From positions 24,169 through 88,168 of the forward strand of contig JAEUHS010000044.1 in assembly GCA_016794035.1 (NCBI GenBank): a stretch of DNA of 64,000 nt. The letters are read 5' to 3'. The notes under the pieces were generated by a model. That model saw only the letters and a program-made list of their open reading frames with translations, was not told the DNA's origin and did no database searches. This DNA comes from Planctomycetota bacterium (lineage in GTDB: Bacteria; Planctomycetota; UBA1135; UBA2386). This document shows positions 7,875 to 49,838 of the stretch, in pieces (within the stretch, counting starts at the first letter, position 1; every line of letters begins with the position of its first letter). Both the position numbers and the translations under genes were made by a program.

Positions 7875-7902
7875 CCGTGAACGGCGGGGGCATGGTCACG
7901 CC

Positions 7903-9357: not shown

Positions 9358-9533
9358 CGCGTCACCTCGTCTGTCCATCGAACCACTTCGCGCGCGCCGG
9401 TGTTTCACCGGAACCTCCAGGTGGCCGAAGAGCGGATGGCCGGTTCGCCCGTTGGAGACGATGCTCTACGCTCTGGGAGTGAACGGGCGACGCCGCGCCG
9501 GCGCCGCCTCGGCCAACGAACAGGAGCTCAGCA

Positions 9534-10627: not shown

Positions 10628-10629
10628 GG

Positions 10630-10773
10630 TCAGCTCGACAGGCGGCGCAGGGCGGCGGAACGCCTGCGCAGGTCGTCGTCGTCGTCGAGCGAGAACGAGC
10701 GGCCGTGGCCGATCTGCTCGCGCAGGAACGTGGCGGTCTCGTCGGCGTCGAGCGGGCGCGCCGCCACGATCAT
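10630..10773 (-). CDS. 47-aa micro-ORF coupled between pepP and the CysZ-like gene (tentative)
   Basis: ATGA overlap with the pepP stop and a stop 2 nt before the next start. GC3 is high. No recognisable motif. Confidence 0.3.
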   Translation of the reverse strand: MIVAARPLDADETATFLREQIGHGRSFSLDDDDDLRRRSAALRRLSS

Positions 10774-28897: not shown

Positions 28898-30474
28898 GGC
28901 GAGCGTTGATCTCGGTCACCGACAAGCACGGTGTCGTCGAGTTCGCGCGGGGCCTGATCGAGTCCGGGTTCTCGCTGCTGTCGACCGGGGGCACGCGCAA
29001 GACCCTTCGCGACGCCGGGGTCGAGGTGGTCGAGGTCGCCGACTACACGGGCTTCCCGGAGACGATGGACGGGCGCGTGAAGACCCTGCACCCGAAGGTG
29101 CACGGTGGCCTGCTCGCACGCCGCGACGAGGAGTCGCATCGGCGGGCGATGGAGCAGCACGGCATCGACCCGATCGACGTGTTGTGCGTCAACCTGTATC
29201 GCTTCCGCGAGACCGTGCGCACGCCGGGCATCTCGCGCGCCGAGATCGTCGAGCAGATCGACATCGGCGGGCCGGCGATGATCCGCAGCGCCGCGAAGAA
29301 CCACCAGAGCGTCGCCGTCGTCGTCGATCCGGCCGACTACCCGGCGGTGCTGCGAGCCCTGCGCGAGCACGGTGGCACGCTGCCGCCGGAACACCTGCGG
29401 CGGCTCGCGGCGAAGGCGTTCGCGCACACCGCCGCCTACGACGCGGCGATTGCGCAGTGGTTCGATTGCGAGCGTCGCACGATGTCGGGCGAGGCGTTCT
29501 TCCCGCCGCGCATCGCGTTCGCCGGTGACAAGCTGCAGGACCTGCGCTACGGCGAGAACCCGCATCAGAAGGCCGCCTTCTACGGCTTCGGGGATCCGAC
29601 GCCGAGCCTCGCCGGCAGCCGTCAGCTCGGCGGCAAGGAACTCAGCTACAACAACATCCTCGACGCCGACGCGGCGCTCGGGCTGGCGCTCGAGTTCGAT
29701 CGCACGAGCTGCGTGTTGGTGAAGCACAACAACCCGTGCGGCACGGCGGTGGCGGACCAGCTGTCGCGCGCCTTCGAGTTGGCCCTGGCCGGCGATCCGG
29801 TGTCCGCGTTCGGCGGCATCTTCGCCACCAACCGCACCTTCGACGTCGCCACGGCCAAGGCGATCGTCGACAGCGGCACCTTCCTCGAGGTGGTGGTCGC
29901 ACCGACCGTCGAACCGGCCGCCGCGGCGGAACTGCTGCGCGCCAAGTGGGGCGCCAACGTGCGCGTGCTCGAGCTCGGCGGCCTGCCCGACGCGACCGTG
30001 CGCAATCGCTACGTCGCCCGCCCGGTCAGCGGCGGCTTCCTGCTGCAGACGGCGGACGTGCCGGCCGAGGCGCCGCGACACGACGTGGCGAGCAAGCGGG
30101 CGCCGACGGACGCGGAGCGGGCGGCGCTGGCGTTCGCCTGGAAGGTCTGCAAGCACGTCAAGTCGAACGCGATCGTGTTCGCGCGCGCGACCGACGACGG
30201 CGCCTTCCACACGGTAGGCGTCGGTGCCGGCCAGATGAGCCGCGTCGACGCGGCGAAGATCGCCGTCGACAAGGCCGGCGAACGCACCCGCGGCGCCGTG
30301 GTCGCGAGCGACGCGTTCTTCCCGTTCCCCGACGGACTGGTCACCTGCGCCGAGGCGGGCGCCACCGCGGTCGTGCAACCCGGCGGCAGCAAGCGCGACG
30401 CCGAGATCACCGCGGCTGCCGACGCGCACGGCATGGCGATGGTGTTCACCGGCCAGCGCCACTTCCGTCACTGA
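28894..30474 (+). CDS. purH: Bifunctional AICAR transformylase / IMP cyclohydrolase
   Basis: ATGA overlap with the prfB stop. N-terminus [16 protein letters not shown], plus [14 protein letters not shown], and C-terminal [10 protein letters not shown]. Confidence 0.92.
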
Positions 30475-32904: not shown

Positions 32905-33849
32905 TCACGAGCGCTGCAGATCGGTGCACGCACGGGCGAACCGGCTCGCCACGTCGTCCCACGGCGCCAGCGGCGGCAGGACGGCGGCGGCGCGGGCGCG
33001 GGCGAGTTGCCGCCCATCGCCGAGCACTTCGTGCAGGCGCCGCTGGAACGCCGCGTCCGGCGCGCTGGCGGGCACCAGCCAGCCGTTCCTGCCGTCGTGC
33101 ACGAAGGTCGGGATCTCGCCGGTGGCGAACGCCAGCACGGGCACGCCGCAGGCCGCGGCCTCCGCGACCGCCATGCCGAACGACTCGTCGCGCGACGCGG
33201 ACACGCACAGTTCGGCGCGCTGCAGCTCGACGGCCACCTCGGCGGGTGGCAGCACGCCGCGCAGGTGCAGCGTGCAGGGCGCCGCGGCGGCCTCGACCTC
33301 GCGCACGTAGTCGGGAGCCAGGTTGCGGTCACCGAGCAGCACGAGGTCGCAAGGCCCCGCCGCCGGCGCCGTCGCCAGCGCGCGCGCCACCAGCAGCTGG
33401 CCCTTGCCGGGGCAGACCGTGCCGATGCAGACGACGCGGCGCCGCCGCGCGGGCGCCGCGGCCGGTCCGGGCCGGAAGCACGCATCGAGTCCCGGCCGCA
33501 CGACCTCGACCCGGCACGCAGCCGCGGCGACGGCATCGGCGGTCGGCTGCGACGTGGCGATCACCGGCAGCGGTGCCGCGGCCCACGGCGCCAGCTCCGG
33601 CGCGCCGTGCAGCAGCGCGACGACGCCGGCCGGCAGGACCCGGCGCGTCCGGGTGACGAACAGGCCGTCGACGACCACCACCGCCTGCGTCGCCGTCGCC
33701 GCCGCCACCGCGGCCGCGAACTGCCCCGGCGCGACCGCGCGCAGTTCGCCTTCGCCGCGCGCCGCGAGCCGTCGCGCGATCTCGGCCTGGTAGCGGTAGC
33801 CGCCGGAGACGAAGCCCGCCGGGCGCTGCGGCTCCAGCAGCAGGATCAC
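32905..33849 (-). CDS. Glycosyltransferase (GT-B, GT4/GT1-like)
   Basis: GTGA overlap with the upstream PTPS-like gene. C-terminal ASRDESFGMAVAEAAACGVPVLAFATGEIPTFV is the typical E-x7-E region. Confidence 0.7.
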   Translation of the reverse strand: MILLLEPQRPAGFVSGGYRYQAEIARRLAARGEGELRAVAPGQFAAAVAAATATQAVVVVDGLFVTRTRRVLPAGVVALLHGAPELAPWAAAPLPVIATSQPTADAVAAAACRVEVVRPGLDACFRPGPAAAPARRRRVVCIGTVCPGKGQLLVARALATAPAAGPCDLVLLGDRNLAPDYVREVEAAAAPCTLHLRGVLPPAEVAVELQRAELCVSASRDESFGMAVAEAAACGVPVLAFATGEIPTFVHDGRNGWLVPASAPDAAFQRRLHEVLGDGRQLARARAAAVLPPLAPWDDVASRFARACTDLQRS

Positions 33850-34244
33850 GCCACCGGACCTTCGAAGCTGGCCCAGGCGACGCGGCTCTCTTCGAGCGTC
33901 ACGCGCAGCACGCCGCGGAACCGGCCGCGCAGCCGCGCGGCGATCTGCCCGTGGATCCACTGCGCCAGGAACTCGGTGGTCGTGTTCACACCGGCGAACG
34001 GCGGCAGCTCGTCGAGGTTGTGGAAGCGCAGCGGATCGAGCACGGCGGTCAGCACCTGATGGCACAGGCCGATGTCCAGCACGATGCCGTCGGCGTCGAG
34101 TCGCTCGGTGGCATACTCGGTGATCACCTCGTAGGTCGCGCCGTGCAGGCGCTGCGCCGGCCCGAACACCGCGCCGCGCAGGCTGTGCGCGACCATCACG
34201 TGGTCCCTGACGGCGACTCGGAACGTTCCCTGGGTCGGTTGCAT
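33846..34244 (-). CDS. 6-pyruvoyl-tetrahydropterin synthase/QueD-like protein with non-canonical active-site residues
   Basis: Aligns by eye to QueD/PTPS (VAHSL, RLHGATYEV, LDPLRFHNLDELPPF, TTEFLAQWIH). The Cys of C-x-R-L-H-G-H is Ala, and the last His is Ala. Confidence 0.7.
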   Translation of the reverse strand: MQPTQGTFRVAVRDHVMVAHSLRGAVFGPAQRLHGATYEVITEYATERLDADGIVLDIGLCHQVLTAVLDPLRFHNLDELPPFAGVNTTTEFLAQWIHGQIAARLRGRFRGVLRVTLEESRVAWASFEGPVA

Positions 34245-34250
34245 GGTGGT

Positions 34251-35231
34251 TCAGTAGGCGACGACCGGACACGGCTCGGACACTTCGCCGCGGCACAGGC
34301 GCGCGAAGAACTGCGGCAGTTGCAGGAACGGGATCGGCGGTCCGAGCAGCGTGTCGAGCCGGTCGTCGGCCAACAACCCGAAGACCTGCGCGGTGCGCGC
34401 CGCGCGGCCGGCGGCACGATGGCTCGGCGCGATCGTGGCGACCTGCGAGGCGACGATGCGCTTGCGCTGGTGATGGAAGCTCGTGCCGAGTTGCAGCAGC
34501 ACGGATCGACTGCCGTACCACGACAGTTCGAGCACGCGTCCCTCGAAGCCGAGGGCGTCGATCGACAGCTGCAGTCCGGCGTTGCTCGCCGACGTGTGGA
34601 ACACGACGTCGAAGCGATCGTGCGCGACTTCGTCCGGCGCGATCACCGCAGCGACCCAGGGCAGGCGCGCGGCGAGCTCGCGCCGCCGCGCATCGGCCTC
34701 CACCAGGACGGCACCCTCACCGTGCACCTGCTCCAGCACCAACGCCACCAGCAGGCCCACGCCTCCGCCGCCGACGATGGCGATGCGCTCACCGGGGCGC
34801 AGCTCCGCGTCCCAGACCGCGTTGAGGGCGGTCTCGAGGTTCGGCAGCAGTGTGGCCCGCGGTCCGGGTGCAAGCGTGTCCGGCAGGCTGATCAGGTCGT
34901 CGCCGGCGACGACGGCACGATCCTGGTGCGGGTGCATCGTGAACACACGTCGCCCCGCGAGTCTGCCCCCGGCGATCCGGCCGACGAGGCTGTAGCCGTA
35001 GCAGATCGGCAGCGAGAACGAGCCCTGCATGGCGCGGCAGGCCATCGCGGCGGCGCAGCTGTCCGGTACGAGGCCGAGACCGACGAGGCGTTCCGTGCCG
35101 GTGCTGATGCCCGAGAACTCGCTGTGGATCAGGTGGTCCTCGACGCCGGGGCGGCGCAGGGTCGAACGGCGCAGGGCACCGACCCCGGGTGACTCGATCC
35201 AGAACGCGAGTGCCGTGTCGTCGGTCACCAT
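34251..35231 (-). CDS. Medium-chain (zinc-type) alcohol dehydrogenase family protein
   Basis: Rossmann motif IAIVGGGGVGLL. MDR-like N-terminal domain. 3-nt gap from the upstream gene. Confidence 0.7.
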   Translation of the reverse strand: MVTDDTALAFWIESPGVGALRRSTLRRPGVEDHLIHSEFSGISTGTERLVGLGLVPDSCAAAMACRAMQGSFSLPICYGYSLVGRIAGGRLAGRRVFTMHPHQDRAVVAGDDLISLPDTLAPGPRATLLPNLETALNAVWDAELRPGERIAIVGGGGVGLLVALVLEQVHGEGAVLVEADARRRELAARLPWVAAVIAPDEVAHDRFDVVFHTSASNAGLQLSIDALGFEGRVLELSWYGSRSVLLQLGTSFHHQRKRIVASQVATIAPSHRAAGRAARTAQVFGLLADDRLDTLLGPPIPFLQLPQFFARLCRGEVSEPCPVVAY

Positions 35232-35234
35232 CGT

Positions 35235-36227
35235 TCAGCCCGCCTCGCCGACCGATGGCCAGCACGACAGCAGCACGTGGCCGTCGAGCATCGTGTGGTC
35301 CATGGTGAACTGCAGACCGTGCCGCACGTGCTCGACCGGCGTCAGCGTGAAGCTGGGAATGCCCGCGCCGAGCACCATCGCCGCGATGTGCACCTGCAAC
35401 AGGTCGATGCAGCGCGCCTGCAGGAACGACGACAGGGTCTGCGAGCCGCCTTCGAGGTAGATCGAGTGCACGTCGCGCGACCGGAGGGCCGCGAGCACCG
35501 CGACCGGATCGAGGGCGTCGGCGGTCGCGGGGACCTCCAGCACATGGCTGCGGCCCGGCGCCGGTGCGCCGTTGCCCGCGGCGACGACGACGTCACAGCC
35601 CGCCCCGCGAAACGCGTGGCGATCGTGGCGTTCGCGCAGGATGGCGCCGCTGCCACTGAGCACGATACGGCGCGGATTCGGGCCGGTGACGTGCCGCACG
35701 TCGAGGCGCGGATCGTCGGTGCGCACGGTGCCGGCGCCGACCAGCACGCCGTCGAGCAGCGCGCGCATGCGGTGGGCGTGTCGCAGGTCGGCGGCGTTGC
35801 CGATCCACTGTGACTGGCCGTTGGGACAGGCGATGCGGCCGTCGAGCGTCTGCGTCACGTGCGCGGCCACGAACGTGCGCCCGCGCCGCCGCGCCGCCGC
35901 GGCGCCGAGCAGGACCGGCAGGTACACGCGCGCCATGGCGAGGAAGCTCGCATCGACGGGGCGCCGGGTCGGGTGCACGAACGTCGGCACCATGGCATCG
36001 GCCGGATCGAACACGGTCAGCGCGGCGTCGGCGGCCAGCGCCGACACGGGCGCGTGCGACAGGGCGAACACCTGCTGCGCCGGTCGCAGGTCGGCGGTGC
36101 CGGTCGGCAGGCAGGACCACTGCGCGCCACGCCGCACGAACACGAACTCGCGCGTGCCCTGCGCGAGCACGGACCGGGCCTCGAGAAAGGCGGGCCAGGC
36201 GCTGTCGTCGCCGAGTTCGCAGACCAT
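35235..36227 (-). CDS. RibD C-terminal (DHFR-like) reductase-domain protein with an approximately 100-aa N-terminal extension
   Basis: HVTQTLDGRIACPNGQSQWIGN...LRALLDGVLVGAGTVRTDDPRLDVR...IYLEGG matches the RibD_C pattern. Start at ATG 36227. Confidence 0.7.
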   Translation of the reverse strand: MVCELGDDSAWPAFLEARSVLAQGTREFVFVRRGAQWSCLPTGTADLRPAQQVFALSHAPVSALAADAALTVFDPADAMVPTFVHPTRRPVDASFLAMARVYLPVLLGAAAARRRGRTFVAAHVTQTLDGRIACPNGQSQWIGNAADLRHAHRMRALLDGVLVGAGTVRTDDPRLDVRHVTGPNPRRIVLSGSGAILRERHDRHAFRGAGCDVVVAAGNGAPAPGRSHVLEVPATADALDPVAVLAALRSRDVHSIYLEGGSQTLSSFLQARCIDLLQVHIAAMVLGAGIPSFTLTPVEHVRHGLQFTMDHTMLDGHVLLSCWPSVGEAG

Positions 36228-36321
36228 GCGGGAGGTGCGGGTTGCAGGCACGCCGGTGGCGGGCGAACCGCGAGAGAACCGGGACAGCCTATCTCGGCCG
36301 GGCGCGGTAGGCTCCCCCTCG

Positions 36322-37023
36322 ATGGCGATCGCGGCCCTGAGCACCTGGTTGCGCGCGCAGGCGGTCTGGTGGCTCGGCTGGCTGCTGGCTGCGGTCTGGT
36401 TCGGCGCGGCGGAACTGCCGGCGTGGTGGTTCGCCGTGCAGACGGTTGTCATGGCGCTCTCGTACGCGGTGCTGGTGCCGATCCTGCGCGCGGGCCGGCG
36501 CGCGGCGGACGTGGTCACGGTCGCGCGCTTCGGCGGCCTGTTGGCGGTGATCTGGCTGGCGGCCGCCGGTCGGCCGTGGTCCTGGTTCGCCGCCGTCGCC
36601 GTGGTGTTGCTGGACCTGGTCGACGGCGCGGTCGCGCGTCGCTGCGGCGGTTCGCCGCAGGGTGCCGTGCTCGACATGGAGACCGATCAGTTCACCGTGC
36701 TCGGTCTGGCGACGCTGGTCGCGGCGGCCGGTGGCGGCGGGCACGTGCTGCTGCTGCCGGCGCTGCGCTACGTGTTCGTGCTGGCGATGTGGTGGGCCGG
36801 GGCGCCGGCGCACGAGCCGAAGCCGGTCGACGGCGACAACCGGCGCGGCCGCACCGTCTGCGCATGCGTCCTGATCGCGCTGCTGGTGGCGCTGTGGCCG
36901 AACCTGCCGCCGCCGGTCGGTGACGTGGTGACCGCGGTCGCGGTGCTGCTGCTGGCGTGGTCGTTCGCCGGCGATGCCGGCTTCCTGCTCGCGCAGCTGC
37001 GCGGGCCGCGGAGCCGCGCGTGA
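36322..37023 (+). CDS. CDP-alcohol phosphatidyltransferase
   Basis: Complete signature D-x2-DG-x2-AR-x8-G-x3-D-x3-D, seen as LDLVDGAVARRCGGSPQGAVLDMETDQ. Multiple TM helices. Confidence 0.85.
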   Translation: MAIAALSTWLRAQAVWWLGWLLAAVWFGAAELPAWWFAVQTVVMALSYAVLVPILRAGRRAADVVTVARFGGLLAVIWLAAAGRPWSWFAAVAVVLLDLVDGAVARRCGGSPQGAVLDMETDQFTVLGLATLVAAAGGGGHVLLLPALRYVFVLAMWWAGAPAHEPKPVDGDNRRGRTVCACVLIALLVALWPNLPPPVGDVVTAVAVLLLAWSFAGDAGFLLAQLRGPRSRA

Positions 37024-37634
37024 ACGTCACCGAGATCGTGGTGCTGGCCGCCTACGCGTCGCTGGTCGTCGAGCTGGTGCTGTTCCCGATCCCGAGCGAA
37101 GCGAGCACGTGGCAGCTGCTGGCCGCCGAGACGCCGGCGAACGCACCCGCCGGCGACGCGCTGCTGCGTGCCCGCTCGCGCCCGCTGGCCCAGAAGATCC
37201 TGCGGCTGTTCCTGCCGACCGCGCTGGGCGTCGTGTCCTGGCTGCTGCCGCTCGGCTGCATCCTGGTGCCGGGGTTCGCGGCGGCGGTCTGGAGCACGTC
37301 GGTGCCGTGGCTGCAGGCGCCGGGACTCGCTCTGGTCGTGCTCGGCCGCGCCGTCACGTTCGCCTCGGTGCTGCAACTGCGCGCGCAACGGCGCCGCGGT
37401 GCAGCGCCGGGCTGGTTGTTCCGGCGGTCGCGCAATCCGGGCCTGGTCGGCATGTTCACCTGCTATCTGGGCCTGTGCTGCCTGTTCGGTTCGCCGCTGC
37501 TGTGGCTCGGCCTGCCGCTCTACGTCGGCAACATGCACGGTCGCGTGCGCATGGAGGAGGCGCACCTGTCGCGGCGGCTCGGTGCCGCGTGGACCGACTA
37601 CGCCGCCCGCGTGCCGCGGTATCTCGGCTGGTGA
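37020..37634 (+). CDS. Membrane methyltransferase, ICMT/PEMT-like
   Basis: GTGA overlap with the upstream gene. C-terminal SRNPGLVGMF...YVGNMHGRVRMEEAHLSRRLGAAWTDYAARVPRY matches the ICMT/phospholipid-methyltransferase C-terminus. Confidence 0.65.
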   Translation: MNVTEIVVLAAYASLVVELVLFPIPSEASTWQLLAAETPANAPAGDALLRARSRPLAQKILRLFLPTALGVVSWLLPLGCILVPGFAAAVWSTSVPWLQAPGLALVVLGRAVTFASVLQLRAQRRRGAAPGWLFRRSRNPGLVGMFTCYLGLCCLFGSPLLWLGLPLYVGNMHGRVRMEEAHLSRRLGAAWTDYAARVPRYLGW

Positions 37635-37667
37635 GGTTCGCCTACACTGCGCGCCCCCGAGGATCCC

Positions 37668-38390
37668 GTGGTCGAGCATCCGGTCAGCCAGGCAGACGTC
37701 GCCGCGTGGTTCGACGCCACCTACCGCAAGAAGGGTCTGCGCTACCTGCGGCCGCGGCGCGCGTACCCGATCTTCGTACAACTGCTCGGTCTGTCGCCGG
37801 GCGCGCGGCTGCTCGACGTCGCCTGCGGGCCGGGCCTCCTGCTCTGCGCCGCGGTCGAACGCGGCCTCGCCGCGGCCGGCGTCGACCTGTCGACCGAGGC
37901 GGTGTCGCTGGCGCAGGAACTGCTGCCGGCCGCCGACGTGCGGCAGGGCAACGCCGAGCGGCTGCCGTTCGCGGACGGCAGCTTCGACGGCGTGACCTGC
38001 CTCGGCTCGATCGAGCGCTTCCTCGATCGCGAGGCGGCGCTGCGTGAGATGCTGCGCGTCGGCAGGCCGGGCGCGCGCTACTGCTTCCTGGTGCGCAACG
38101 CGAACACGATCGTCTGGCGGTTCTGGCGGCAGGGCCTCGGCCGCCGCGAGGTGCAGGGCCATCAGGACGCGCAGACCATCGCGCAATGGCGCGAGCTGTT
38201 CGTCCGCGTCGGCTTCCGGGTCGAACGTGTGCTGCCGGACCAGTGGCCGCGCGCACGCTGGCGGCAGCTGCTGCCGTGGTGGCGGCCGCGGCCCGGTCGC
38301 CGCGAGCCGGTGGCGCGGCCGCTGGTGCCATTGCGCTGGTGCAACGAGCTGGTGTTCGTGTTGCGCCGGGCCGGAGACGCGGCGCGATGA
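37668..38390 (+). CDS. Class I SAM-dependent methyltransferase (type 11)
   Basis: Motif I LLDVACGPG and post-I AGVDLS, plus FDGVTCLGSIE. Confidence 0.8.
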   Translation: MVEHPVSQADVAAWFDATYRKKGLRYLRPRRAYPIFVQLLGLSPGARLLDVACGPGLLLCAAVERGLAAAGVDLSTEAVSLAQELLPAADVRQGNAERLPFADGSFDGVTCLGSIERFLDREAALREMLRVGRPGARYCFLVRNANTIVWRFWRQGLGRREVQGHQDAQTIAQWRELFVRVGFRVERVLPDQWPRARWRQLLPWWRPRPGRREPVARPLVPLRWCNELVFVLRRAGDAAR

Positions 38391-39244
38391 CGGCGCCATC
38401 GGCCGACGCGGGGGCGCTCTACGAGACGCTGTCACGGTTCCAGTGGTGGCGGTCGCGGCGCGCGCGATCGCGCGGCGAGGGTCTCGAACTGCGCAAACGC
38501 CTGTCGCCGCCGCGCGCCGGCGACGGTCCGGCCGATGGCGCCGCCGGCCTCGATCGCTGGCTGTTCGCACAGCTCGCCGGCCGCCCCGCGGCCCGCGTGC
38601 TCGACCTCGGCTGCGGCTTCGGCGCGTCGACGCAGCGTTGGGCCGCGCTCGGCGGCGGCACGGCGGTCGGCATCACGCCGAGCGCGTTCCAGGTCGACAA
38701 GGCGACCGCGGCGGCCGCGCGCGCCGGCCTCGGCTCGCGCGTGCGCTTCGTGCGCCAGGACTTCCTGGCGCCGCTCGACGGACGCTTCGACGTCGTGCTG
38801 GCGATCGAATCGCTCGGCCACGCCCACGACCTGCCGGCGGCACTCGCGAACGTGCGCCGCGCGCTGCGGCCCGGCGGCACCTTCGTCTGGGTCGAGGATC
38901 TGCTGCGCGCGCCGCTGGCCGACGACGCGGACGTGCACCGGCTCGCCGCCGCCTGGCGCTCGCCGCCGCTGCGCACCATCGACGACGCCCGCCAGGCGCT
39001 GCGCGCCGCGGATCTCGCCGTCCGGGCCGAACGGGATCTGACGCACCAGGTCCCGGTCGCGGCGATGCCTCAGTTGGCGGCGCGCGATCGCCGATTGGGT
39101 CGTGTGCGCCGCCTGTCACCCCTGTCGCCGCTGCGACGGCTGATCGACGCCTTCCGCGGCGGCGTCGCCCTCGAACGACTCTACGTCCGCCAACTCGCCT
39201 GCTACCTTGTCTGGATGAGCGAACGCCCGCCGGAGGCCTCGTGA
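38387..39244 (+). CDS. Class I SAM-dependent methyltransferase (second copy, different subfamily)
   Basis: ATGA overlap with the upstream gene. VLDLGCGFG, VGITPS, FDVVLAIESLGH, LRPGGTF. Confidence 0.8.
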   Translation: MTAPSADAGALYETLSRFQWWRSRRARSRGEGLELRKRLSPPRAGDGPADGAAGLDRWLFAQLAGRPAARVLDLGCGFGASTQRWAALGGGTAVGITPSAFQVDKATAAAARAGLGSRVRFVRQDFLAPLDGRFDVVLAIESLGHAHDLPAALANVRRALRPGGTFVWVEDLLRAPLADDADVHRLAAAWRSPPLRTIDDARQALRAADLAVRAERDLTHQVPVAAMPQLAARDRRLGRVRRLSPLSPLRRLIDAFRGGVALERLYVRQLACYLVWMSERPPEAS

Positions 39245-40875
39245 AGTTCCTCCGTCATCTCGCCTGGCCGATCGCGCTGCTGCCGGCGCTGGCGGCGTTC
39301 GTCTGGACGAGCTTCGCCTCGCGCCTGCCCGAGTCCGCCGCCGCGCGGCGCGCGCTGGGCGAGGTGACGATGCGCTGGGACTTCGCCGAGCTGGCGGACC
39401 TGCGCCAGGAGCCGGCGCACCTGCTGGCGCGGGCCCTGCACCTGGCGGCGCTGCACGTGCCGGGATCGTCGTTCTGGTGGGCCGCCTCGGTCAACGCCGT
39501 GCTGGCGCTGCTGATCGTGTTCGCGTTCGTCGCCGTCGCCCGCCGGACCTTCGCGCTCGCGGGCATGGCACAAGCGTTCGCGCTCGGGCTGGCCGGGCTG
39601 CTGGTGGGCAGTCCCGCGTTCGGCGCCGACTGGCTGTACGGCGAACGCACGGGCCTGTTCCTCGTGCCGCTGCTGCTGCTGTGGTCGCTGGTACTGCTGC
39701 TGGGCGCCGGTGGTTTCACCTGGCGCGCGCTGCTGGTGCTGCTGCTGACGGTCGCGGCGCCATTCTGTCACACGAACGGCCTGTTGGTGTTCGTCGCGCT
39801 GGCGCCTGCGCTGCTCGAGGCCGCGCGCCGCGCCGGCAGCACGCGCCGTGTCGGCTGGATGCTCGCGCTGCTGATCTGCGGCAACCTCGCCGCCGTCGCC
39901 ACCATGACGCCCGCGGGCGGGCTCGCGCTCGGCGACACCGGCCTGCTCGGCCGCCTGGTGGCGGCCCCGGCCGACACGCTGCTGCACCTGCTGCGCACGA
40001 CCGGCTCCGCGTGGCTCGATCCGGTGCCGACGGCGACCTGGGACGAACTGGCGCTTGGCGCGTTCGCCTGGTCGTTGCCGCTGCTGTTCTGGCGGCTCGG
40101 CGACCGCAGCGACGAAGCGCGCCGGCAGGCGGCGCCCTGGTGGGGTTGCGTCTGGTTCGGCCTGTCGCTGTTCGTGCTCGCCGCCGAACGGCACGGCGCC
40201 GACCTGACGGGTGCGGCGCTGCGCGAACTGACGTTCGGCGCGTTCCTGCTGCCGATCGGCTGCTTCGGCGTGCTGGCCGCGCGCTGCGGCGCCGGCATGG
40301 CGCCGGTGGGGGCGGGTGTGCTGTTGGTGCTGGCAGCGCAGGACTGGCCGCACGGCATCGAGGATCTGCGCCTCGCGCGCATGCAGGTCGAACGCACCGC
40401 GATGAATCTGCAGCTGTCGCGGGTCGGCGGTGCCACACCGGCCAACGGCCACGAGGAGCTGCAGATCCTGCAGGCGCGCGGCTGGGCCGCAGCCACCGAC
40501 GGCCTGTTCGACGCGGCACATCGCGCGGCCACCGCGCCGCCCGCCGAACACCTGGGCGGCGTGCTCGACGGCGATGCCACGTCGGTGCGCGGCCTCGTGC
40601 GGTCGTCGCTGACCGGCGACAACGTGCAGTGCGTCGTCGCCACCGTGGCCGGCAGCACGGTCGACGGCGGCGGTGAGAAGGTGCTGGGCAAGGTGCTGCC
40701 CGACTACGTGGGCCAGGGACGCAACGTGCCGTGGACGATCGCCTGGGATGCGCCGCTGGCCGACGGCACGCGGGTCCGCGTCGTCGGCTACTGCCTGCGC
40801 CGGGGCACGTTCGTGGCGCTGACCGAGGTCCGCGTCGTGAAGGACGGCAAGCTCGTGCCCGAGTCCGGCGGATGA
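39241..40875 (+). CDS. Polytopic membrane protein, possibly GT-C-like, with an extracytoplasmic C-terminal domain
   Basis: GTGA overlap with the upstream gene. About 10 hydrophobic helices are followed by a soluble 150-aa tail. No catalytic motif recognised. Confidence 0.45.
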   Translation: MKFLRHLAWPIALLPALAAFVWTSFASRLPESAAARRALGEVTMRWDFAELADLRQEPAHLLARALHLAALHVPGSSFWWAASVNAVLALLIVFAFVAVARRTFALAGMAQAFALGLAGLLVGSPAFGADWLYGERTGLFLVPLLLLWSLVLLLGAGGFTWRALLVLLLTVAAPFCHTNGLLVFVALAPALLEAARRAGSTRRVGWMLALLICGNLAAVATMTPAGGLALGDTGLLGRLVAAPADTLLHLLRTTGSAWLDPVPTATWDELALGAFAWSLPLLFWRLGDRSDEARRQAAPWWGCVWFGLSLFVLAAERHGADLTGAALRELTFGAFLLPIGCFGVLAARCGAGMAPVGAGVLLVLAAQDWPHGIEDLRLARMQVERTAMNLQLSRVGGATPANGHEELQILQARGWAAATDGLFDAAHRAATAPPAEHLGGVLDGDATSVRGLVRSSLTGDNVQCVVATVAGSTVDGGGEKVLGKVLPDYVGQGRNVPWTIAWDAPLADGTRVRVVGYCLRRGTFVALTEVRVVKDGKLVPESGG

Positions 40876-42512
40876 GACGGATCGGCGTGATCCTCGGGTG
40901 GCTCGCGGCCCTCGCGTTGCTGCACCTGGCGTCGATCGCGCCGCTGCCGTTCGCCGGCGCCGACCCCGGCCGCGCGCTGTGGCACGTGTCGCCCGATGCG
41001 GTGTGTCTGCTGGCGATCGCGGCGCTCGGGGCGTCGATCGGGCGCGGTCGTCTGTTCGCGCATCTGGCCGCGCTGACCCTGCTGGCGGCCGCGCTCTACC
41101 GAACGGCGGCGTTCTACGTCGCGGCGCTGCTCGATCGCCGGCTCGACCTGACGTTCGACGTGATGGAGGTGCCAGGAGTCTTGCACCTGCTGACGCACGA
41201 CAGCCGCCTCGAGCCATGGATGGTCGTCGCGGGCGCCGTGCTGGCCCTCGTGCTCGCGTGGCTGCTGCTGGCGTGGGCGTTCGCGCGCGCGGCGCGGCCG
41301 GCGCGCAGCACGCACGGCGCCGTGCTGCTGGTCGCGCTGCTGCAGGCGATCGTGCTCGGCGACATCGCGCGCGGCTCGCTCGACCGCCGGGCCGAATCGT
41401 GGTGGCGCCCTTCTTCGGTGCTGCCGCTGGCGACCGATGTGCGCGCCTCGGCGAGCTACTGGTTCGATCCCGGAGAGTTCGACGGAGCGATCCGCGAACA
41501 GCTGCGCGAGGCCGCCGAGCGCATGGCCGCGACGCCGACCGATCTCGGCGTGTTGCACGGTGCCGACGTGCATCTGGTGATCGTCGAGTCCTACGGCCGC
41601 TGGGCGCTGCGCGAACCGACGGTGCACGCGCGCCTGCGGTCGCTGTGGCAACAGGTCGGTCCCGAGCTGCAGGCCGCCGGCTTCGAGGTCTGCACGGCGA
41701 CCTGTCGGCCGTCGAACAGCGGCGGCGAGTCGTGGCTGACGCACGCGCAGCTGTTGTCGGCGGCGCCGATCGGCCATCGGCGCCAGTTCCAGCTGCTGCT
41801 GCAGAGCGACATCGAGCCGCTGCCGAAGCGCTTCCAGGCGGCGGGCTACCACACCGTCGAGGTGATGCCGGCGATGCCGCGGCACTGGCCCGAAGGCCAG
41901 CGCTTCTACGGCTTCGACGCGTCGATCACGCAACTCGAACTCGACTACACCGGGACGGTCTACCACTGGGGTCGCATGCCGGACCAGTTCGCGCTGCACC
42001 ACCTGCTCGAACACGTGGTGCGGCCGGCGCCGGGCCCGCTGTTCACGATGTACGTGTCGGTGACGAGCCATGTGCCGTTCCGGCTGGTGCCGCCCTACAT
42101 CGACGACTGGCGCATCGACGCCGACACGTTCCGCGGGCCGCCGCGCATCGAACACCCGCTGTCGTGGTCCAGCGTGCCGTTCGACCCGCAGCTGGTGCCC
42201 GCCTACGCCGATACGCTCGAGTACACGCTGCGGTGCACCGCCGGCTTCGTCGCGCGCCTGACGCGGCCGTCGCTGGTGATCGTGCTCGGCGACCACCAGC
42301 CGCCGATCGCGACCGTCGGCCCGACGCGCGATGCCGGCTACGACGTGCCGATCCACGCGTTCGCGAATCGGCCGGAGCTGCTGGCCCCGTGCCGGGCGCT
42401 CGGCTTCGTCGACGGCTACGAGGTGCCCGAAGGCGCGGAGGCGTTTCCGACCGATCGGTTCGCGCCGGCGTTCCTCGAGCTGTACTCGCAGCCGTCGCAG
42501 CAGCCGCGCTGA
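40872..42512 (+). CDS. Membrane-anchored sulfatase-fold (LTA-synthase / phosphoglycerol- or phosphoethanolamine-transferase-like) protein
   Basis: ATGA overlap with the upstream gene. N-terminal TM helices. The extracytoplasmic domain has VIVESYG, SGGESW, VSVTSHVPF and VLGDHQP, typical of alkaline-phosphatase-superfamily transferases. Confidence 0.65.
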   Translation: MRRIGVILGWLAALALLHLASIAPLPFAGADPGRALWHVSPDAVCLLAIAALGASIGRGRLFAHLAALTLLAAALYRTAAFYVAALLDRRLDLTFDVMEVPGVLHLLTHDSRLEPWMVVAGAVLALVLAWLLLAWAFARAARPARSTHGAVLLVALLQAIVLGDIARGSLDRRAESWWRPSSVLPLATDVRASASYWFDPGEFDGAIREQLREAAERMAATPTDLGVLHGADVHLVIVESYGRWALREPTVHARLRSLWQQVGPELQAAGFEVCTATCRPSNSGGESWLTHAQLLSAAPIGHRRQFQLLLQSDIEPLPKRFQAAGYHTVEVMPAMPRHWPEGQRFYGFDASITQLELDYTGTVYHWGRMPDQFALHHLLEHVVRPAPGPLFTMYVSVTSHVPFRLVPPYIDDWRIDADTFRGPPRIEHPLSWSSVPFDPQLVPAYADTLEYTLRCTAGFVARLTRPSLVIVLGDHQPPIATVGPTRDAGYDVPIHAFANRPELLAPCRALGFVDGYEVPEGAEAFPTDRFAPAFLELYSQPSQQPR

Positions 42513-42515
42513 CCG

Positions 42516-43652
42516 CTACTCGAAGCGGGCCTGGCGCGCGAGGCGCTTGCGGATGATCTCGATGCGCTCCAGCTGGCCGCGCGCCGGGAAGCGTTCGTAG
42601 AAGCCCTCGCGGCGGAAGTCCTGCGTCAGCTCGGCGATCGGCCGGAAGCGGGTCTCGAGCAGCTTCGCCAGTTCGGGTCCCGGTGCGATCGTCGCGTCGA
42701 TGCGCGCGGCGACGTCGCCGCACAGCCGCAGCATGCCCTCGATCGTGACGTCGCGCGTCACCATGTGGTTCTTGTTGTCGCCCCAGGCGCTGCCGAACAC
42801 CGTGCGCAGCGCCTTCAGGGTGTCGCGGATCAGCCCGTAGCCGCGGTCCTTGCTCCAGCCGCGGCCGTCCTTGAAGCGGTGCTGCGCGTCCTTGCGCCGG
42901 ATCAGGCGGTAGGTCTCGCCGAAGATCTGCGCCTGGTTGATCCACATCTCCTGCGCCGACCGGCCGCCGAGCATGTTGATGTGGTACTGCAGCGGCGAGT
43001 CGTCGGACTCGTACAGCGAACGCACCAGCGTCGCGGCGTACTTCTTCTCGGGGTCGGTGCCCCACTCGATGCGTTCGTACAGGTCGATCAGGTGCGACTT
43101 GTTGATGCGCGTGTGGGTGCTGTTGATGACGACGAACATCTCGGTCGCGAAGTCCGACGTCTTGCCGTCGAACACGACCACCGGCACTTCGACGCGGCGG
43201 TCGGCGTCCTTCTCCTGCAGGTAGAAGTGCAGGCCGGCGAGCCGGTGCTGGCCGTCGATGATCAGGAAGTCGCCGCGCGGTTCGACCAGGTTGCCGGCGC
43301 GCTCCATGCCGCGCATCGGCTGGAACTCGAGCTTCTCCGGCGTGAACAGCAGCACCGCGCCCGGGATCACCGGCTGCCGCGTCTCGTTGCGGTAGAAGTC
43401 CTTGATCTGCTTGACCTTCCTGCGGTTCAGGTCGCGCTGGAACGACTTGCTGTTCTTCTCGATCGCCTGCACGTAGCGCTCGACGTCGTCCGGCTCCTGC
43501 TTCCGCTTCGCCTTGCCGTCGTCGCCGCCGATGGTCTGCCCGCGGTCGCCGTAGAAGCGCGTCACGAAGCGCACCTTGCGCAGCAGGTCTTCCGCCGGGT
43601 AGCTGACGAAGTAGAACTCCGACTCCTTCTGCCGCATGCGCTGGGCGAACAT
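42516..43652 (-). CDS. DGQHR-domain protein (DndB/DpdB-like, ParB-nuclease superfamily)
   Basis: Literal motif IIDGQHRLAG (DGQHR encoded at 43242-43256). IPGAVLLF lies upstream and VINSTHTRINKSHLIDL downstream. Start at ATG 43652. The remaining 450 codons of the 828-aa ORF are a shadow of the opposite-strand gene. Confidence 0.8.
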   Translation of the reverse strand: MFAQRMRQKESEFYFVSYPAEDLLRKVRFVTRFYGDRGQTIGGDDGKAKRKQEPDDVERYVQAIEKNSKSFQRDLNRRKVKQIKDFYRNETRQPVIPGAVLLFTPEKLEFQPMRGMERAGNLVEPRGDFLIIDGQHRLAGLHFYLQEKDADRRVEVPVVVFDGKTSDFATEMFVVINSTHTRINKSHLIDLYERIEWGTDPEKKYAATLVRSLYESDDSPLQYHINMLGGRSAQEMWINQAQIFGETYRLIRRKDAQHRFKDGRGWSKDRGYGLIRDTLKALRTVFGSAWGDNKNHMVTRDVTIEGMLRLCGDVAARIDATIAPGPELAKLLETRFRPIAELTQDFRREGFYERFPARGQLERIEIIRKRLARQARFE

Positions 43653-43784
43653 CCGTGCTCCTTGGACCGGGTGTAGGTGCTGGGCGAGAGTTTGCTCGCC
43701 GGCGGCCGGGTTGGCAAAGGTCGGGCGGGGTTCCGTGTCGCCGGGGCTGGCACCGCCGATGCCGTCGGCACTACGGTGCCACCG

Positions 43785-45044
43785 ATGTCGCCGCTGACCG
43801 TCGTCTGGGCCTACCGCCGCACGGGGAAGTTCGCCTTCCACGTGCTGACCGGGGCGCTGGAGACCGATGCTCGGGCGGCCGGCGTGCCGATCGTGTTCGC
43901 CAACGGCGTCGAGGCGGTGGTCGCGGCGCTGCGCGAGGCGCTGGCGGCCGGGCATCGCGTGCTGGTCGGCTGGTCGTTCTATTCGCCGGACTTCGCGCTG
44001 CTCGCGGCGGAGCTGCAGCAGGTGAAGGCACGGATCGACGCTGCGCGCGTGCTGCACGTCGCCGGCGGCGTGCACGCGTCGGCCGAGCCCGAGGCGACGC
44101 TGCGCGCCGGCTTCGACCTGGTCGCGACCGGCGACGGCGAACGGCTGGTGCAGGACCTCGTGCACGCGCTGCGCACCGGCGGCGAGCCGCGCGCGATCGC
44201 CGGCATCGGCTGGCTCGAGGCCGGCGTCCTGCGGCGCAACGGCCGCGCGGCGCGCACCGCGCTCGACGAGTTCCCGCCGTTCGGCCCCGCGCACGACCGC
44301 TTCGGCCCGATCGAGATCACGCGCGGCTGCGTCTACGCGTGCCGGTTCTGCCAGACGCCGTACTTCGCCGGCGCCAGCTTCCGGCACCGCAGCGTCGCCA
44401 ACGTGCGGCATTGGGCGCGCTACCTGGTCGGCCGCGGCTTCCGGGACTTCCGCTTCCTGACGCCGACGTCGATGAGCTACGGCGCGACCGGGCCGGAGCC
44501 GGATCTCGCCGCGGTCGAGGCGCTGCTGGCCGCGGTGCGCGAGGAGATCGGACCGCAGCGGCGGTTGTGGTTCGGCACGTTCCCGAGCGAGGTGCGGCCC
44601 GAACACGTCACCGACGCGAGCCTTCGGCTGCTGCGGCGGTGGGTCACCAACAAGGCGCTGATCCTCGGCGGCCAGTCCGGCAGCGACCGCGTGCTGGCGG
44701 CGAGCGCGCGCGGTCACGATGCGGCGACCGTCGAGCGCGCGACCGCGCTGTGTCTCGAGTACGGCTTCGTGCCGCACGTCGACTTCCTGTTCGGCATGCC
44801 CGGCGAAGCGCCCGCCGATGTCGAGGCGACGCTGGCGCTGATGGACCGCCTGGTCGCGCGCGGCGCCAAGGTGCACGGTCACACGTTCCTGCCGTTGCCC
44901 GGCACGCCGTTCCGCAAGGCCGCACCCGGCGTGCTGACGCCCGCGATGCGCCAGCGGCTGCTGGCGATGGCGTCGAAGGGGCAGCTGTACGGGCAGTGGC
45001 AACAGCAGGAGGTCACCGCGCGCGAGCTGGCGGAGCGGCGCTGA
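43785..45044 (+). CDS. Radical SAM enzyme with an N-terminal B12-binding-like domain
   Basis: CVYACRFC (C-x3-C-x2-C) after a Rossmann-like N-domain. Overall resemblance to the archaeal MJ_1487-type B12/rSAM family. Start at ATG 43785 (an alternative GTG is at 43677). Confidence 0.75.
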   Translation: MSPLTVVWAYRRTGKFAFHVLTGALETDARAAGVPIVFANGVEAVVAALREALAAGHRVLVGWSFYSPDFALLAAELQQVKARIDAARVLHVAGGVHASAEPEATLRAGFDLVATGDGERLVQDLVHALRTGGEPRAIAGIGWLEAGVLRRNGRAARTALDEFPPFGPAHDRFGPIEITRGCVYACRFCQTPYFAGASFRHRSVANVRHWARYLVGRGFRDFRFLTPTSMSYGATGPEPDLAAVEALLAAVREEIGPQRRLWFGTFPSEVRPEHVTDASLRLLRRWVTNKALILGGQSGSDRVLAASARGHDAATVERATALCLEYGFVPHVDFLFGMPGEAPADVEATLALMDRLVARGAKVHGHTFLPLPGTPFRKAAPGVLTPAMRQRLLAMASKGQLYGQWQQQEVTARELAERR

Positions 45045-45584: not shown

Positions 45585-46553
45585 TCAGCCGTTCTCGGCG
45601 CGGCGCAGGCGGTTCTCGTTCTTGGGGTCGGTCGGGTCGTGGTAGACGAGGCCACCGTTGATGCGCTCGACGACGGGCTTGCGGGTCTTGTCGCGGTAGT
45701 GCCGCGTGTACGTCTGCGGCACCGAGTAGTGCGTGACGTACGACTTGCGCGTCAGGGATCGGTCGAGCACCGGCGAACCGCCGTGGGCGAGCGCGGCGTG
45801 CCAGAGGAACACGTCACCCTTCTTCGGGCAGAACGTCAGTCGTTCGAGGCCGGCCTCCCGGCAGTGCCGGTCGATGTGCTCGGCGAACTGCTGTTCGGTC
45901 GCCGTCGAGCCCGACTGGCGGAAGATGCCGTTGCCCCAGTCGAACATCGGCAGCGCGTGCGAACCCGGCACATAGGTGAGCGGCCCCGCGCGCGGATCGA
46001 TGTCCTCGAGCGCGACCCAGGAAGCGCACAGGTGCGCCGGGTTGCCCGAGAACACGTAGGCGTGGTCCTGATGGAGCAGCTGCTGACTGCCCTCGAGGAA
46101 GGTCAGCGACTGCATCATCACGACGTCGTTGGCGAAGAGATGGCGAACGAAGTCGACGATCTGCGCGTGCAGCGAGATCCGCTTGGCCGCGACCGAGGCG
46201 TGATGCAGGTCGACGAAGCGCATACGCTGGCCGAAGAAGAACTGCGGGTCGGCGGTGCGGATCGGCACGTGGTCGTACTTGTCGCTGAGGATCAGCGAGC
46301 TGTGGTCGCGGTGGTTGGCCATCACTTCGTCGATGTCGGCGAGCAGCGCGTCGATCAGCGCCGGCTCGATCGCCCGCTCCAGCACGACGTAGCCGAGCCC
46401 CATCCACTGGAACAACCGCTGCCGCAACCGCGCCCGCTCCGCGACGTCGATCGGCTGCGCCCGCACGTGGTCTTCGATCGCGTAGCGCAGCTCGTCGACC
46501 CAGGGCAGTCGCTTGCGGCGGAAATCGAGCTGTTGGGGTCCGCGGGCGAACAT
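45585..46553 (-). CDS. Fe(II)/2-oxoglutarate dioxygenase, phytanoyl-CoA dioxygenase (PhyH) family
   Basis: HQDHAY (H-x-D), a later PGSH, and WHAALAHGG. The start could be ATG 46553 or 46598. Confidence 0.7.
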   Translation of the reverse strand: MFARGPQQLDFRRKRLPWVDELRYAIEDHVRAQPIDVAERARLRQRLFQWMGLGYVVLERAIEPALIDALLADIDEVMANHRDHSSLILSDKYDHVPIRTADPQFFFGQRMRFVDLHHASVAAKRISLHAQIVDFVRHLFANDVVMMQSLTFLEGSQQLLHQDHAYVFSGNPAHLCASWVALEDIDPRAGPLTYVPGSHALPMFDWGNGIFRQSGSTATEQQFAEHIDRHCREAGLERLTFCPKKGDVFLWHAALAHGGSPVLDRSLTRKSYVTHYSVPQTYTRHYRDKTRKPVVERINGGLVYHDPTDPKNENRLRRAENG

Positions 46554-46619
46554 GGTGGCTGCGCGCGGCCAAGCATCATGGAGCGCGGTCGGCGCCACAA
46601 GCCCGAGGCGCGTGGCGGA

Positions 46620-48959: not shown

Positions 48960-49838
48960 ATGACGGCGCGCGTCGGGTTCTCGCTGCAGCCGGACACCGA
49001 GTTCCTCGGCCTGCTCGAGCCGGTGCTGCGCGACGCCGACTACTTCGAGATCACGCCCGAGACGACGTGGCGCCGCGGCGGCGACGGCGGCTGGGTGCCC
49101 AACGGTTTCCACCGCGAGTTCCGGCGGCTCGGCGACGAACTGCACACGCCGTTCGTCGGCCACGCCGTGCACGGCAGCTTCGGCACCGCCGATCCGCGCG
49201 ATCGCGAACGCCAGGCGGCGTGGCAGCAGCGCATCGCCGCCGACCACGCGGTGTTCGACTTCCAGTGGTTCACCGACCACCTCGGCGCCGCGGTGCTGGA
49301 CCAACGCGCGCTGACCCTGCCGATCGCGCTGCCGATGCACGACGCCATGGCGCAGATCGTGCGCGAGCGGCTGGTGGCGCTGCAGCAGGTGGTGCCCGAC
49401 GTCGGCGTCGAGAACAGCGTGTTCTACTTCCTGCTCGGCGACTGGCTCGACGAGCCGGACTTCCTCGCACGCGTGCTGGCCGCGCCGCGCACGCACCTGC
49501 TGCTGGACCTGCACAACGTGTGGACGATGGCGCAGAACGTCGGTGCCGATGCGCAGGCGTGGCTCGACCGCCTCGACTGCTCGCGCGTGATCGAGATCCA
49601 CCTGTCCGGCGGCGAACGCAGCCAACCCGGCTGGCTGCCCGACGGTCGCACGCTGCGCCTCGACAGCCACGACCACGCCGTGCCCGACGAGGTCTGGGCG
49701 CTGTTCGAAGAGGTGCTGCCGCGCTGCACGAACCTGCGCGGTGTCACGCTCGAACGCATGGAGGGCAGCGTCGCGGCCGGCGACGTGTCGCAGGTGCAGG
49801 CCGAACTGCGTCGCATCCGCGAGGTGCTACGTGGCTGA
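48960..49838 (+). CDS. DUF692 / multinuclear non-haem iron oxidative enzyme (MNIO, MbnB/HvfB/BufB-like)
   Basis: TIM-barrel landmarks YFEITPE, HAVHGSFG, FTDHLG, VENSVFY, LLDLHN, EIHLSGG and DSHDHAVPDEVW. Confidence 0.75.
   Translation: MTARVGFSLQPDTEFLGLLEPVLRDADYFEITPETTWRRGGDGGWVPNGFHREFRRLGDELHTPFVGHAVHGSFGTADPRDRERQAAWQQRIAADHAVFDFQWFTDHLGAAVLDQRALTLPIALPMHDAMAQIVRERLVALQQVVPDVGVENSVFYFLLGDWLDEPDFLARVLAAPRTHLLLDLHNVWTMAQNVGADAQAWLDRLDCSRVIEIHLSGGERSQPGWLPDGRTLRLDSHDHAVPDEVWALFEEVLPRCTNLRGVTLERMEGSVAAGDVSQVQAELRRIREVLRG

Follow-up and report, generated by a model that had tools for sequence, protein, structure and literature searches.

A divergent ten-gene cluster from Planctomycetota that may make a lipid head group and transfer it to the cell envelope

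The ten genes considered here form two divergently transcribed operons on a 64,000-nucleotide stretch of contig JAEUHS010000044.1 from a Planctomycetota bacterium, a stretch that is referred to as the window throughout. The plus-strand operon comprises six genes: G1 (36322-37023; 233 aa), encoding a CDP-alcohol phosphotransferase (CDP-OH-PT); G2 (37020-37634; 204 aa), an integral-membrane S-adenosylmethionine (SAM) methyltransferase of the ICMT/PEMT superfamily; G3 (37668-38390; 240 aa) and G4 (38387-39244; 285 aa), two class I SAM methyltransferases; G5 (39241-40875; 544 aa), a membrane protein with about 10-11 transmembrane (TM) helices; and G6 (40872-42512; 546 aa), a membrane-anchored enzyme of the alkaline-phosphatase superfamily with the fold of LtaS, EptA, GacH and BcsG. 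The minus-strand operon starts with a RibD_C-type pyrimidine reductase (35235-36227; 330 aa), continues with a dehydrogenase-like protein of the medium-chain dehydrogenase/reductase (MDR) superfamily (34251-35231; 326 aa) and a PTPS-like T-fold protein of the SCO6650 type (33846-34244; 132 aa), and ends with a GT4 glycosyltransferase (32905-33849; 314 aa).

Since about 72% of the bases in the window are G or C, raw lists of open reading frames (ORFs) were noisy, and genes were called from a GC3 frame plot (GC by codon position) in combination with translation. The six products obtained for an identical metagenome contig (JGI 3300009870) by an independent gene call are those called here. Consecutive genes from G1 to G6 are joined by a GTGA overlap, a 33-nt gap (37635-37667) and overlaps of ATGA, GTGA and ATGA, in that order, and 94 bp without a gene (36228-36321) lie between the start codon of G1 and the ATG of the divergent gene at 36227. 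The first-pass annotation of this DNA had described a six-gene operon with these domains, four 4-nt ATGA/GTGA overlaps with one 33-nt gap, and a 94-bp divergent region; the first is confirmed by the frame plot, translation, Pfam and the independent gene call, the second by translation, and the coordinates of the third by both start codons. The six genes form one operon, its co-transcription being suggested by the overlaps and by the absence of internal terminators, none of which was found in the cluster. The 94-bp region contains no sigma-70-like promoter consensus, and a riboswitch or regulatory RNA was rejected because an Rfam search of the whole window, including the divergent region, matched no family.

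G1 matches the Pfam family CDP-OH_P_transf (PF01066) with 37.4 bits (cut-off 22), and the complete signature already noticed in the first-pass annotation, D98-x2-D101-G102-x2-A105-R106...G114-x3-D118-x3-D122, is invariant at all these residues in 24 orthologues. None of the NCBIfam equivalog cut-offs is reached by G1, for which the top scores are those of AIP synthase (23.5, cut-off 180), PIP synthase (20.8, cut-off 170) and PssA (12.9, cut-off 107), and no match to a phosphatidylcholine (PC) synthase or cardiolipin synthase model was obtained, with the presence of such models in the library not checked. Compared with PDB entries, the G1 profile stands at roughly equal distance from the CPT1, PssA, PgsA and PIS structures and prefers no subfamily. 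Judged from its sequence, G1 is a CDP-alcohol phosphotransferase of a distinct subfamily. Standard synthesis of PC, phosphatidylinositol (PI), phosphatidylglycerol (PG), phosphatidylserine or cardiolipin was rejected on the NCBIfam scores, and the possibility raised earlier, that these genes simply match a known PC, PI or cardiolipin pathway, did not materialize, as no standard phospholipid-synthase equivalog was reached. A complete-motif CDP-alcohol phosphotransferase near a GT4 gene also recalls the logic of phosphatidylinositol-mannoside synthesis, in which PIP synthase or PgsA is combined with a PimA-type GT4. The present cluster differs from that system in the scores of G1 (20-24 bits against cut-offs of 170-180), in the lack of an inositol-phosphate synthase and in its partners, which are RibD_C, the T-fold protein and GTP cyclohydrolase II (GCH II).

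All three methyltransferase calls hold. G2 alone scores 24.4 bits with Pfam PEMT (PF04191), just below the cut-off of 25, and nine of ten G2 orthologues match this family; the G2 family profile also matches the ICMT structures 5V7P (E 3e-7) and 4A2N. A conserved motif, SRNPGLVGM...MHxRVxxEExxL..G..Y..Y..VPRY, fits the C-terminal pattern of ICMT and PEMT enzymes and aligns with the SAM-binding region of ICMT. By these sequence criteria G2 is a member of the ICMT/PEMT superfamily of membrane methyltransferases, to which PEMT and PmtA also belong; it differs from the latter two in falling short of the Pfam cut-off and in being confined to the Planctomycetota version of the cluster. The two different class I SAM methyltransferases are assigned by Pfam to Methyltransf_11 (G3, 75 bits) and Methyltransf_25 (G4, 63.5 bits). 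In the neighbourhood analysis presented below, orthologues of G2 and strong orthologues of G3 occurred only in Planctomycetota loci, and those of G4 were present also in Acidobacteriota.

G5, which had been described as a protein with roughly ten TM helices, has no Pfam family. Its AlphaFold2 (AF2) model is confident (mean predicted local distance difference test score, pLDDT, 89.5) and shows about 10-11 TM helices followed by a C-terminal beta-sandwich. The homologues are hypothetical proteins from metagenomes, those named all originating from Planctomycetota metagenome-assembled genomes (MAGs), and 350 representatives of remote homologues (E <= 1e-3) likewise yielded no Pfam family. Residue E31 after the first TM helix is fully conserved, E57 almost fully. 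Among membrane-protein folds the model has weak matches only, all of the GT-C type (PimE, STT3, ArnT, EmbB, PglB and AftA; E ~1e-2, TM-scores 0.3-0.36), and G5 is possibly a GT-C glycosyltransferase, an assignment from the model that serves as a lead only.

For G6, the fold of the sulfatase-like transferase proposed in the first-pass annotation is borne out by Pfam Sulfatase (36 bits, cut-off 25) and by an AF2 model with a pLDDT of 92.9, whose closest folds are the lipid phospho-head-group transferases LtaS/LtaP, full-length MCR-1, GacH, EptC and BcsG (TM-scores 0.45-0.6); sulfamidases and sulfatases are also found among the fold matches. No NCBIfam model matches G6, and sequence searches against solved structures with G6, G1 and the G6 profile gave nothing useful, so that fold comparison alone was productive. 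From hydropathy and charge distribution, G6 is predicted to cross the membrane five times, its N-terminus lying inside and its catalytic domain outside. E239, S287, H400, D474 and H475 are invariant in the family; motif position and the secondary structure of the model suggest E239, D474 and H475 as putative metal ligands and S287, located at the N-terminus of a helix, as the putative nucleophile. We take these five residues to correspond to the metal ligands, the nucleophile and the phosphate-binding histidine of LtaS. In LtaS and EptA the nucleophile is a threonine. According to the model, G6 has the architecture of LtaS/EptA-type enzymes, with a 5-TM anchor and a predicted outward-facing alkaline-phosphatase-fold domain.

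The first protein of the divergent operon matches RibD_C (PF01872) with 115 bits over residues 119-305, and no deaminase family was detected in it. RibD and the archaeal DARP reductases are its PDB matches. It scores 99 against the NCBIfam model of bacterial RibD (cut-off 156) and 70 against that of the archaeal reductase (cut-off 186), and because neither equivalog is reached, it represents a distinct subfamily. The substrates known for RibD_C enzymes are GTP-derived. The family profile of the MDR-like protein matches threonine, sorbitol, iditol, xylitol and galactitol-1-phosphate dehydrogenases (42-59 bits), and a match to BchC (61 bits) lies far under the cut-off. The protein retains GxGxxG, and SRGTE stands at what is presumably the position of the catalytic zinc-cysteine motif of MDR enzymes. 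Its likeness to polyol dehydrogenases would suit a ribityl chain as substrate. The GT4 protein matches Pfam Glyco_trans_1_4 with 73.7 bits; EpsE, MshA and BshA are its top NCBIfam matches, all far under their cut-offs.

The PTPS-like protein matches Pfam PTPS with 82 bits, and its family has at least 8000 homologous proteins at E <= 1e-10. Its family profile aligns with SCO6650 of Streptomyces coelicolor (PDB 3D7J, deposited as an uncharacterized protein) over positions 1-132 with 214 bits (E 4e-63), compared with 30-40 bits for canonical PTPS and QueD structures, and the QueD model is missed (37 bits, cut-off 89). Sequence comparison indicates that the protein belongs to an SCO6650-type T-fold subfamily. 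With canonical PTPS and QueD (COG0720) this subfamily has in common the T-fold and the positions of the pterin-anchoring glutamates: E90 (in TTTE) and E118 (in HES) are invariant and align with these residues. It differs from them throughout in having HGAT in place of HGH, which removes the third zinc-binding histidine, and an alanine in place of the catalytic cysteine. The name "PTPS-like" given in the first-pass annotation is right at the fold level (T-fold, Pfam PTPS) only, since the catalytic residues of canonical PTPS and QueD are absent; as a statement on chemistry it does not stand. A review of COG0720 distinguishes subfamilies I-VI and regards the function of PTPS-V as still unclear (PMC5041015); the subfamily of the window could not be mapped to this scheme. 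The SCO6650 structure, which Spoonamore et al. are said to have described in 2008, reportedly contains no zinc and has a site compatible with a pterin-like ligand, the protein showing no PTPS activity.

Conservation of the cluster was analysed at two levels. The arrangement of all ten genes recurs with 36-60% protein identity and unrelated flanks in four other Planctomycetota MAGs (L006, L011, L012 and L014), in agreement with the co-occurrence that the first-pass annotation had named as a test, and an 8-Mb chromosome carries the set together but reordered, with a Methyltransf_24 gene standing in for the PTPS-like gene. The nearest named relatives come from Planctomycetota MAGs. Because the arrangement is kept in distant genomes, it is not due to chance. 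Relatives of G6 are found in at least 528 species genomes and were seen in Planctomycetota, Acidobacteriota, Gemmatimonadota, Actinomycetota and Alpha-, Beta- and Gammaproteobacteria. For the neighbourhood analysis, the ORFs of 83 non-redundant loci were clustered, a hidden Markov model was built for each frequent cluster, and six-frame translations were searched; partners were counted in the 53 loci in which G6 is flanked by 8 kb or more on each side. RibD_C and GT4 each accompany G6 in 37 of these 53 loci, the MDR-like protein in 32, the PTPS-like protein and a further SAM methyltransferase in 31 each, CDP-OH-PT in 29, GCH II in 24, an FkbM methyltransferase in 20, a flippase-like LPG_synthase_TM protein of the MprF type in 17 and MdoG in nine; 26 loci combine MDR, PTPS-like, GT4 and CDP-OH-PT. 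Two frequent ORF clusters without assignment (263 aa and 212 aa) lie antisense to GT4 and MDR genes, with which they overlap, and are probably shadow ORFs.

The module occurs in at least six phyla, and the window represents its Planctomycetota version. The conserved core consists of G1, G6, the MDR-like and PTPS-like proteins, GT4 and RibD_C, to which the Planctomycetota have added G2, G3 and G5. Neorhizobium vignae follows the same plan with other accessory genes: one side holds RibD_C, methyltransferase, GT4, PTPS-like and MDR genes, and the opposite side those for CDP-OH-PT, an FkbM methyltransferase, LPG_synthase_TM and G6. The actinobacterial order is MDR, PTPS-like, GT4, methyltransferase, LPG_synthase_TM, RibD_C and GCH II, divergent from a CDP-OH-PT::G6 fusion gene. 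Such fusions, of about 720-800 aa, were found in Actinomycetota and in one MAG of the Terriglobia and consist of the N-terminal transferase, a TM block and the alkaline-phosphatase-fold domain; they tie G1 to G6. Compared with the actinobacterial version, the window has the three additional genes, encodes G1 and G6 separately, and is without GCH II and the flippase-like gene. No paper describing the cluster was found in the searchable full-text literature, and the remark in the first-pass annotation that the combination is not a described pathway thus stands.

The pairing of the two operons bears on whether they belong to one pathway at all. Ordinary PC synthesis also involves PEMT-like and CDP-OH-PT genes, and PTPS, reductase and glycosyltransferase genes together resemble cyanobacterial pterin-glycoside synthesis, so that ordinary phospholipid N-methylation might merely be situated beside an unrelated soluble pterin-glycoside pathway. 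This is highly improbable: of the 28 loci holding both a CDP-OH-PT and an MDR gene, 20 have the two as divergent neighbours, a pairing that is kept across phyla, the actinobacterial fusion gene is divergent from the MDR, PTPS-like and GT4 genes, none of the equivalogs for Pcs, PgsA, PssA and PIPS is reached, and the T-fold protein lacks the catalytic residues of PTPS.

The head group for which the ten genes would be responsible is probably GTP-derived. This is indicated by GCH II genes within or next to the module, by fusions of GT4 with GCH II, by a RibD_C reductase without a detected deaminase domain, and by a T-fold protein that keeps the residues aligning with those that bind the 2-amino-4-oxopyrimidine ring. 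The GT4::GCH II fusions belong to Planctomycetota clusters without G5 and measure 551 aa in L015 (3684-5339, minus strand) and 542 aa in L020 (1461-3089, minus strand), with both domains confirmed by Pfam; a further one in L017 is indicated by reading frame. They tie the glycosyltransferase to a GTP-derived metabolite. As the cluster copies of GCH II keep the zinc-binding cysteine motif and the equivalent of the canonical Tyr105, they should form 2,5-diamino-6-ribosylamino-pyrimidinone 5'-phosphate. This compound is the substrate of the archaeal and fungal-type reductases. A pterin might arise if the ribityl chain were oxidized and the ring then closed, a possibility that is chemically reasonable but speculative. 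SCO6655 is reportedly a GCH II variant that gives a formylated product in vitro, and the spacing of the locus tags SCO6650 and SCO6655 presumably matches the distance of five genes between PTPS-like and GCH II genes in actinobacterial loci. A creatininase-family amidohydrolase accompanies GCH II and RibD_C in 16 of the 53 neighbourhoods, for example at 4130-5089 on the minus strand of L050. A formamidopyrimidine (FAPy) route with an ArfB-like creatininase was considered and is not supported, given the residues kept by the cluster GCH II; since these copies look canonical, an ArfB-like deformylase role of the creatininase is not obviously needed.

The same genes can be read in another way, with RibD_C, the MDR-like protein and the T-fold protein acting on a sugar or polyol phosphate and GCH II serving another purpose; the product would then be a glycosylated and methylated polyol-phosphate lipid or a teichoic-acid-like decoration, and the head group would not derive from a purine. 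The absence of GCH II from the window would agree with this, as would a T-fold protein without canonical PTPS chemistry, the resemblance of the MDR-like protein to polyol dehydrogenases, and GT4 matches such as MshA and BshA, which use small polyol or acid acceptors. We consider it unlikely in view of the GT4::GCH II fusions within the same phylum, the presence of GCH II in 24 of the 53 neighbourhoods and its contiguity with the operon in Actinomycetota, the conserved glutamates of the T-fold protein, and the GTP-derived substrates known for GCH II and for RibD_C enzymes.

Hints on the acceptor come from homologues of G6 outside the Planctomycetota. In Inquilinus, the G6 homologue is located directly upstream of opgG and a gene for an OpgH-like GT2 on the same strand (L027, 8984-15434), and no other module gene was detected within the 10-kb flanks. 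In Halomonas/Vreelandella, the G6 homologue lies beside MdoG and an OpgH-like GT2, and genes for GCH II, creatininase, RibD_C and methyltransferases accompany them (L050 of Halomonas, 5760-10996), and a Gemmatimonadaceae MAG combines the full module with opgG/OpgH-like glucan genes (L078, 2-4769). Placement in opgG/opgH operons is a parallel to OpgB and OpgE, by analogy with which periplasmic glucans are plausible acceptors in Proteobacteria and Gemmatimonadota. The window contains no MdoG-like gene. The outward orientation predicted for G6 and the evidence for a GTP-derived head group would also be in line with lipid-linked export of a soluble pterin or pyrimidine compound, which G6 would release by hydrolysis to serve as a cofactor or signal in the periplasm or outside the cell, and nine G6 loci have no obvious gene for the synthesis of an acceptor. 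Such export is quite unlikely: the linkage to opgG/opgH indicates a polymeric acceptor, the fold relatives of G6 are transferases, and no precedent is known to us.

A third way to use the same lipid would be to leave it in the membrane as a new polar lipid, with G6 trimming it as a hydrolase or phosphatase, much like the enzymes that convert phosphatidylinositol phosphate to PI or phosphatidylglycerol phosphate to PG. The faint top subfamily matches of G1, the AIP and PIP synthases, use phosphorylated polyols and are followed by a phosphatase, the CDP-OH-PT::G6 protein would fit as a fusion of consecutive enzymes, and many members of the alkaline-phosphatase superfamily are hydrolases, as are the sulfamidases and sulfatases among the fold matches of G6. 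We nevertheless regard this explanation as doubtful, because the top fold matches of G6 are all lipid-to-acceptor transferases, its 5-TM architecture with the domain outside is that of LtaS and EptA, G6 homologues are located in opgG/opgH operons, and the module includes flippase-like genes.

We therefore prefer the explanation in which the ten genes constitute one module, a GTP-derived lipid head group decorated with sugar and methyl groups being passed by G6 to an extracytoplasmic acceptor, and assign it a probability of about one half. In the cytoplasm, GCH II and the RibD_C reductase would convert GTP to a ribosyl- or ribityl-diaminopyrimidine; for the window, the GCH II gene would need to lie at another place in the genome. 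Remodelling of this pyrimidine intermediate would fall to the MDR protein, which resembles polyol dehydrogenases, and to the T-fold protein of the SCO6650 type, and the intermediate would then be glycosylated by GT4 and methylated by G3 and G4. G1 would attach the resulting alcohol to a lipid by a phosphodiester bond, with CDP-diacylglycerol as the simplest donor, and G2 would methylate the lipid-bound product. After flipping of the lipid, a step at which the MprF-type LPG_synthase_TM protein may act in other phyla, G6 would take the phospho-head group from the lipid at the outer face by means of Ser287 and the metal site (E239, D474, H475) and hand it to the extracytoplasmic acceptor in the manner of LtaS, EptA, GacH, OpgB and BcsG. 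In Planctomycetota this acceptor might be built or modified by G5 as a possible GT-C glycosyltransferase. The methylated, possibly glycosylated head group passed to an envelope acceptor that had been suggested in the first-pass annotation gains support from the co-conservation of the genes and from the transferase fold and predicted outward domain of G6.

Several points weigh against this proposal. The window has no gene for GCH II, a creatininase or an MprF-type flippase. The indications of co-transcription are gene overlaps and missing internal terminators, and for G5 the GT-C assignment is a weak one. G6 has a serine in place of the threonine, shows no detectable sequence similarity to solved structures, and has a fold that by itself cannot tell a transferase from a hydrolase. 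Loci of the Halomonas type combine G6 with GCH II, RibD_C and methyltransferases but lack genes for CDP-OH-PT, MDR and PTPS-like proteins up to a distance of 10 kb, and nine G6 loci carry no partner at all, which implies that G6 enzymes can work with other donors.

LtaS, EptA/MCR-1, GacH and BcsG transfer a phospho-head group from a phospholipid to an extracytoplasmic acceptor. With these enzymes and OpgB, G6 has in common the N-terminal 5-TM anchor and the predicted outward alkaline-phosphatase-fold domain and, with LtaS and EptA in particular, a putative metal site and a putative hydroxyl nucleophile at the N-terminus of a helix. It differs from LtaS and EptA by the nature of that putative nucleophile and by the strong divergence of its family. 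Moreover, its donor lipid apparently originates from a dedicated synthase (G1) instead of bulk PG or phosphatidylethanolamine, and the module has a dedicated, probably GTP-derived, head-group pathway. Going one step further, we tentatively propose, as a possibility below even odds, that a phospholipid with a glycoside head group of the GTP-derived pterin or ribityl-pyrimidine type is present in at least six phyla, that it is made by a dedicated route of GCH II, RibD_C, MDR-like and T-fold proteins together with the new CDP-alcohol phosphotransferase subfamily, and that it is the donor for a new LtaS/EptA-like family decorating periplasmic glycans. To our knowledge, no earlier lipid head group and envelope substituent derived from a purine is known, and this would be the first. 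If the proposal is correct, it would define an uncharacterised envelope-modification pathway with relatives of G6 in all of those at least 528 species genomes, provide a role for the structural-genomics orphan SCO6650 and for a "dark" LtaS/EptA-like family, and link purine- or pterin-type metabolism to lipid head groups and to the decoration of periplasmic glycans. MCR-1/EptA, LtaS and GacH affect antibiotic and host interactions, which makes a new branch of practical interest. The question is directly testable, since cultured carriers exist: S. coelicolor (by the 3D7J match), N. vignae, Thiorhodococcus minor, Halomonas/Vreelandella, Inquilinus limosus and Actinomycetospora chiangmaiensis.

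The remaining features of the window lie outside the two operons. Upstream, a purH-like ORF on the plus strand (28243-30474) encodes 743 aa when read from the first in-frame GTG, and its MGS and AICARFT/IMPCHase domains start only at residue 230, so that either the true start is situated downstream or the protein has an N-terminal extension without a Pfam family. Directly downstream of G6, a DGQHR-domain protein of the DndB/DpdB-like type is encoded on the minus strand (42516-43652; TIGR03187, 119.7 bits), near which no dnd or dpd partner genes were seen. Its counterparts in three other Planctomycetota MAGs share 86-91% identity with it, compared with only 43-84% for the neighbouring proteins of the cluster, and its gene combines an unusually low GC content at codon position 2 (0.28-0.47) with a GC3 of about 1.0. 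It is followed on the plus strand by a gene (43677-45044) for a B12-binding radical SAM protein of the TIGR04013 (MJ_1487) family (427.6 bits, cut-off 251), which is also found near the cluster in L011, L012 and L014 (73-81% identity) and is absent from the other versions. The segment 45585-49838 contains, in this order, a gene for a PhyH-family dioxygenase (45585-46598, minus strand), a DUF3817 gene, two ORFs without a Pfam family and an MbnB/TglH/ChrH (DUF692) gene (48960-49838), and may be a peptide-modification cluster. At 50-56 kb, the GC content of the window drops to 0.63-0.67.

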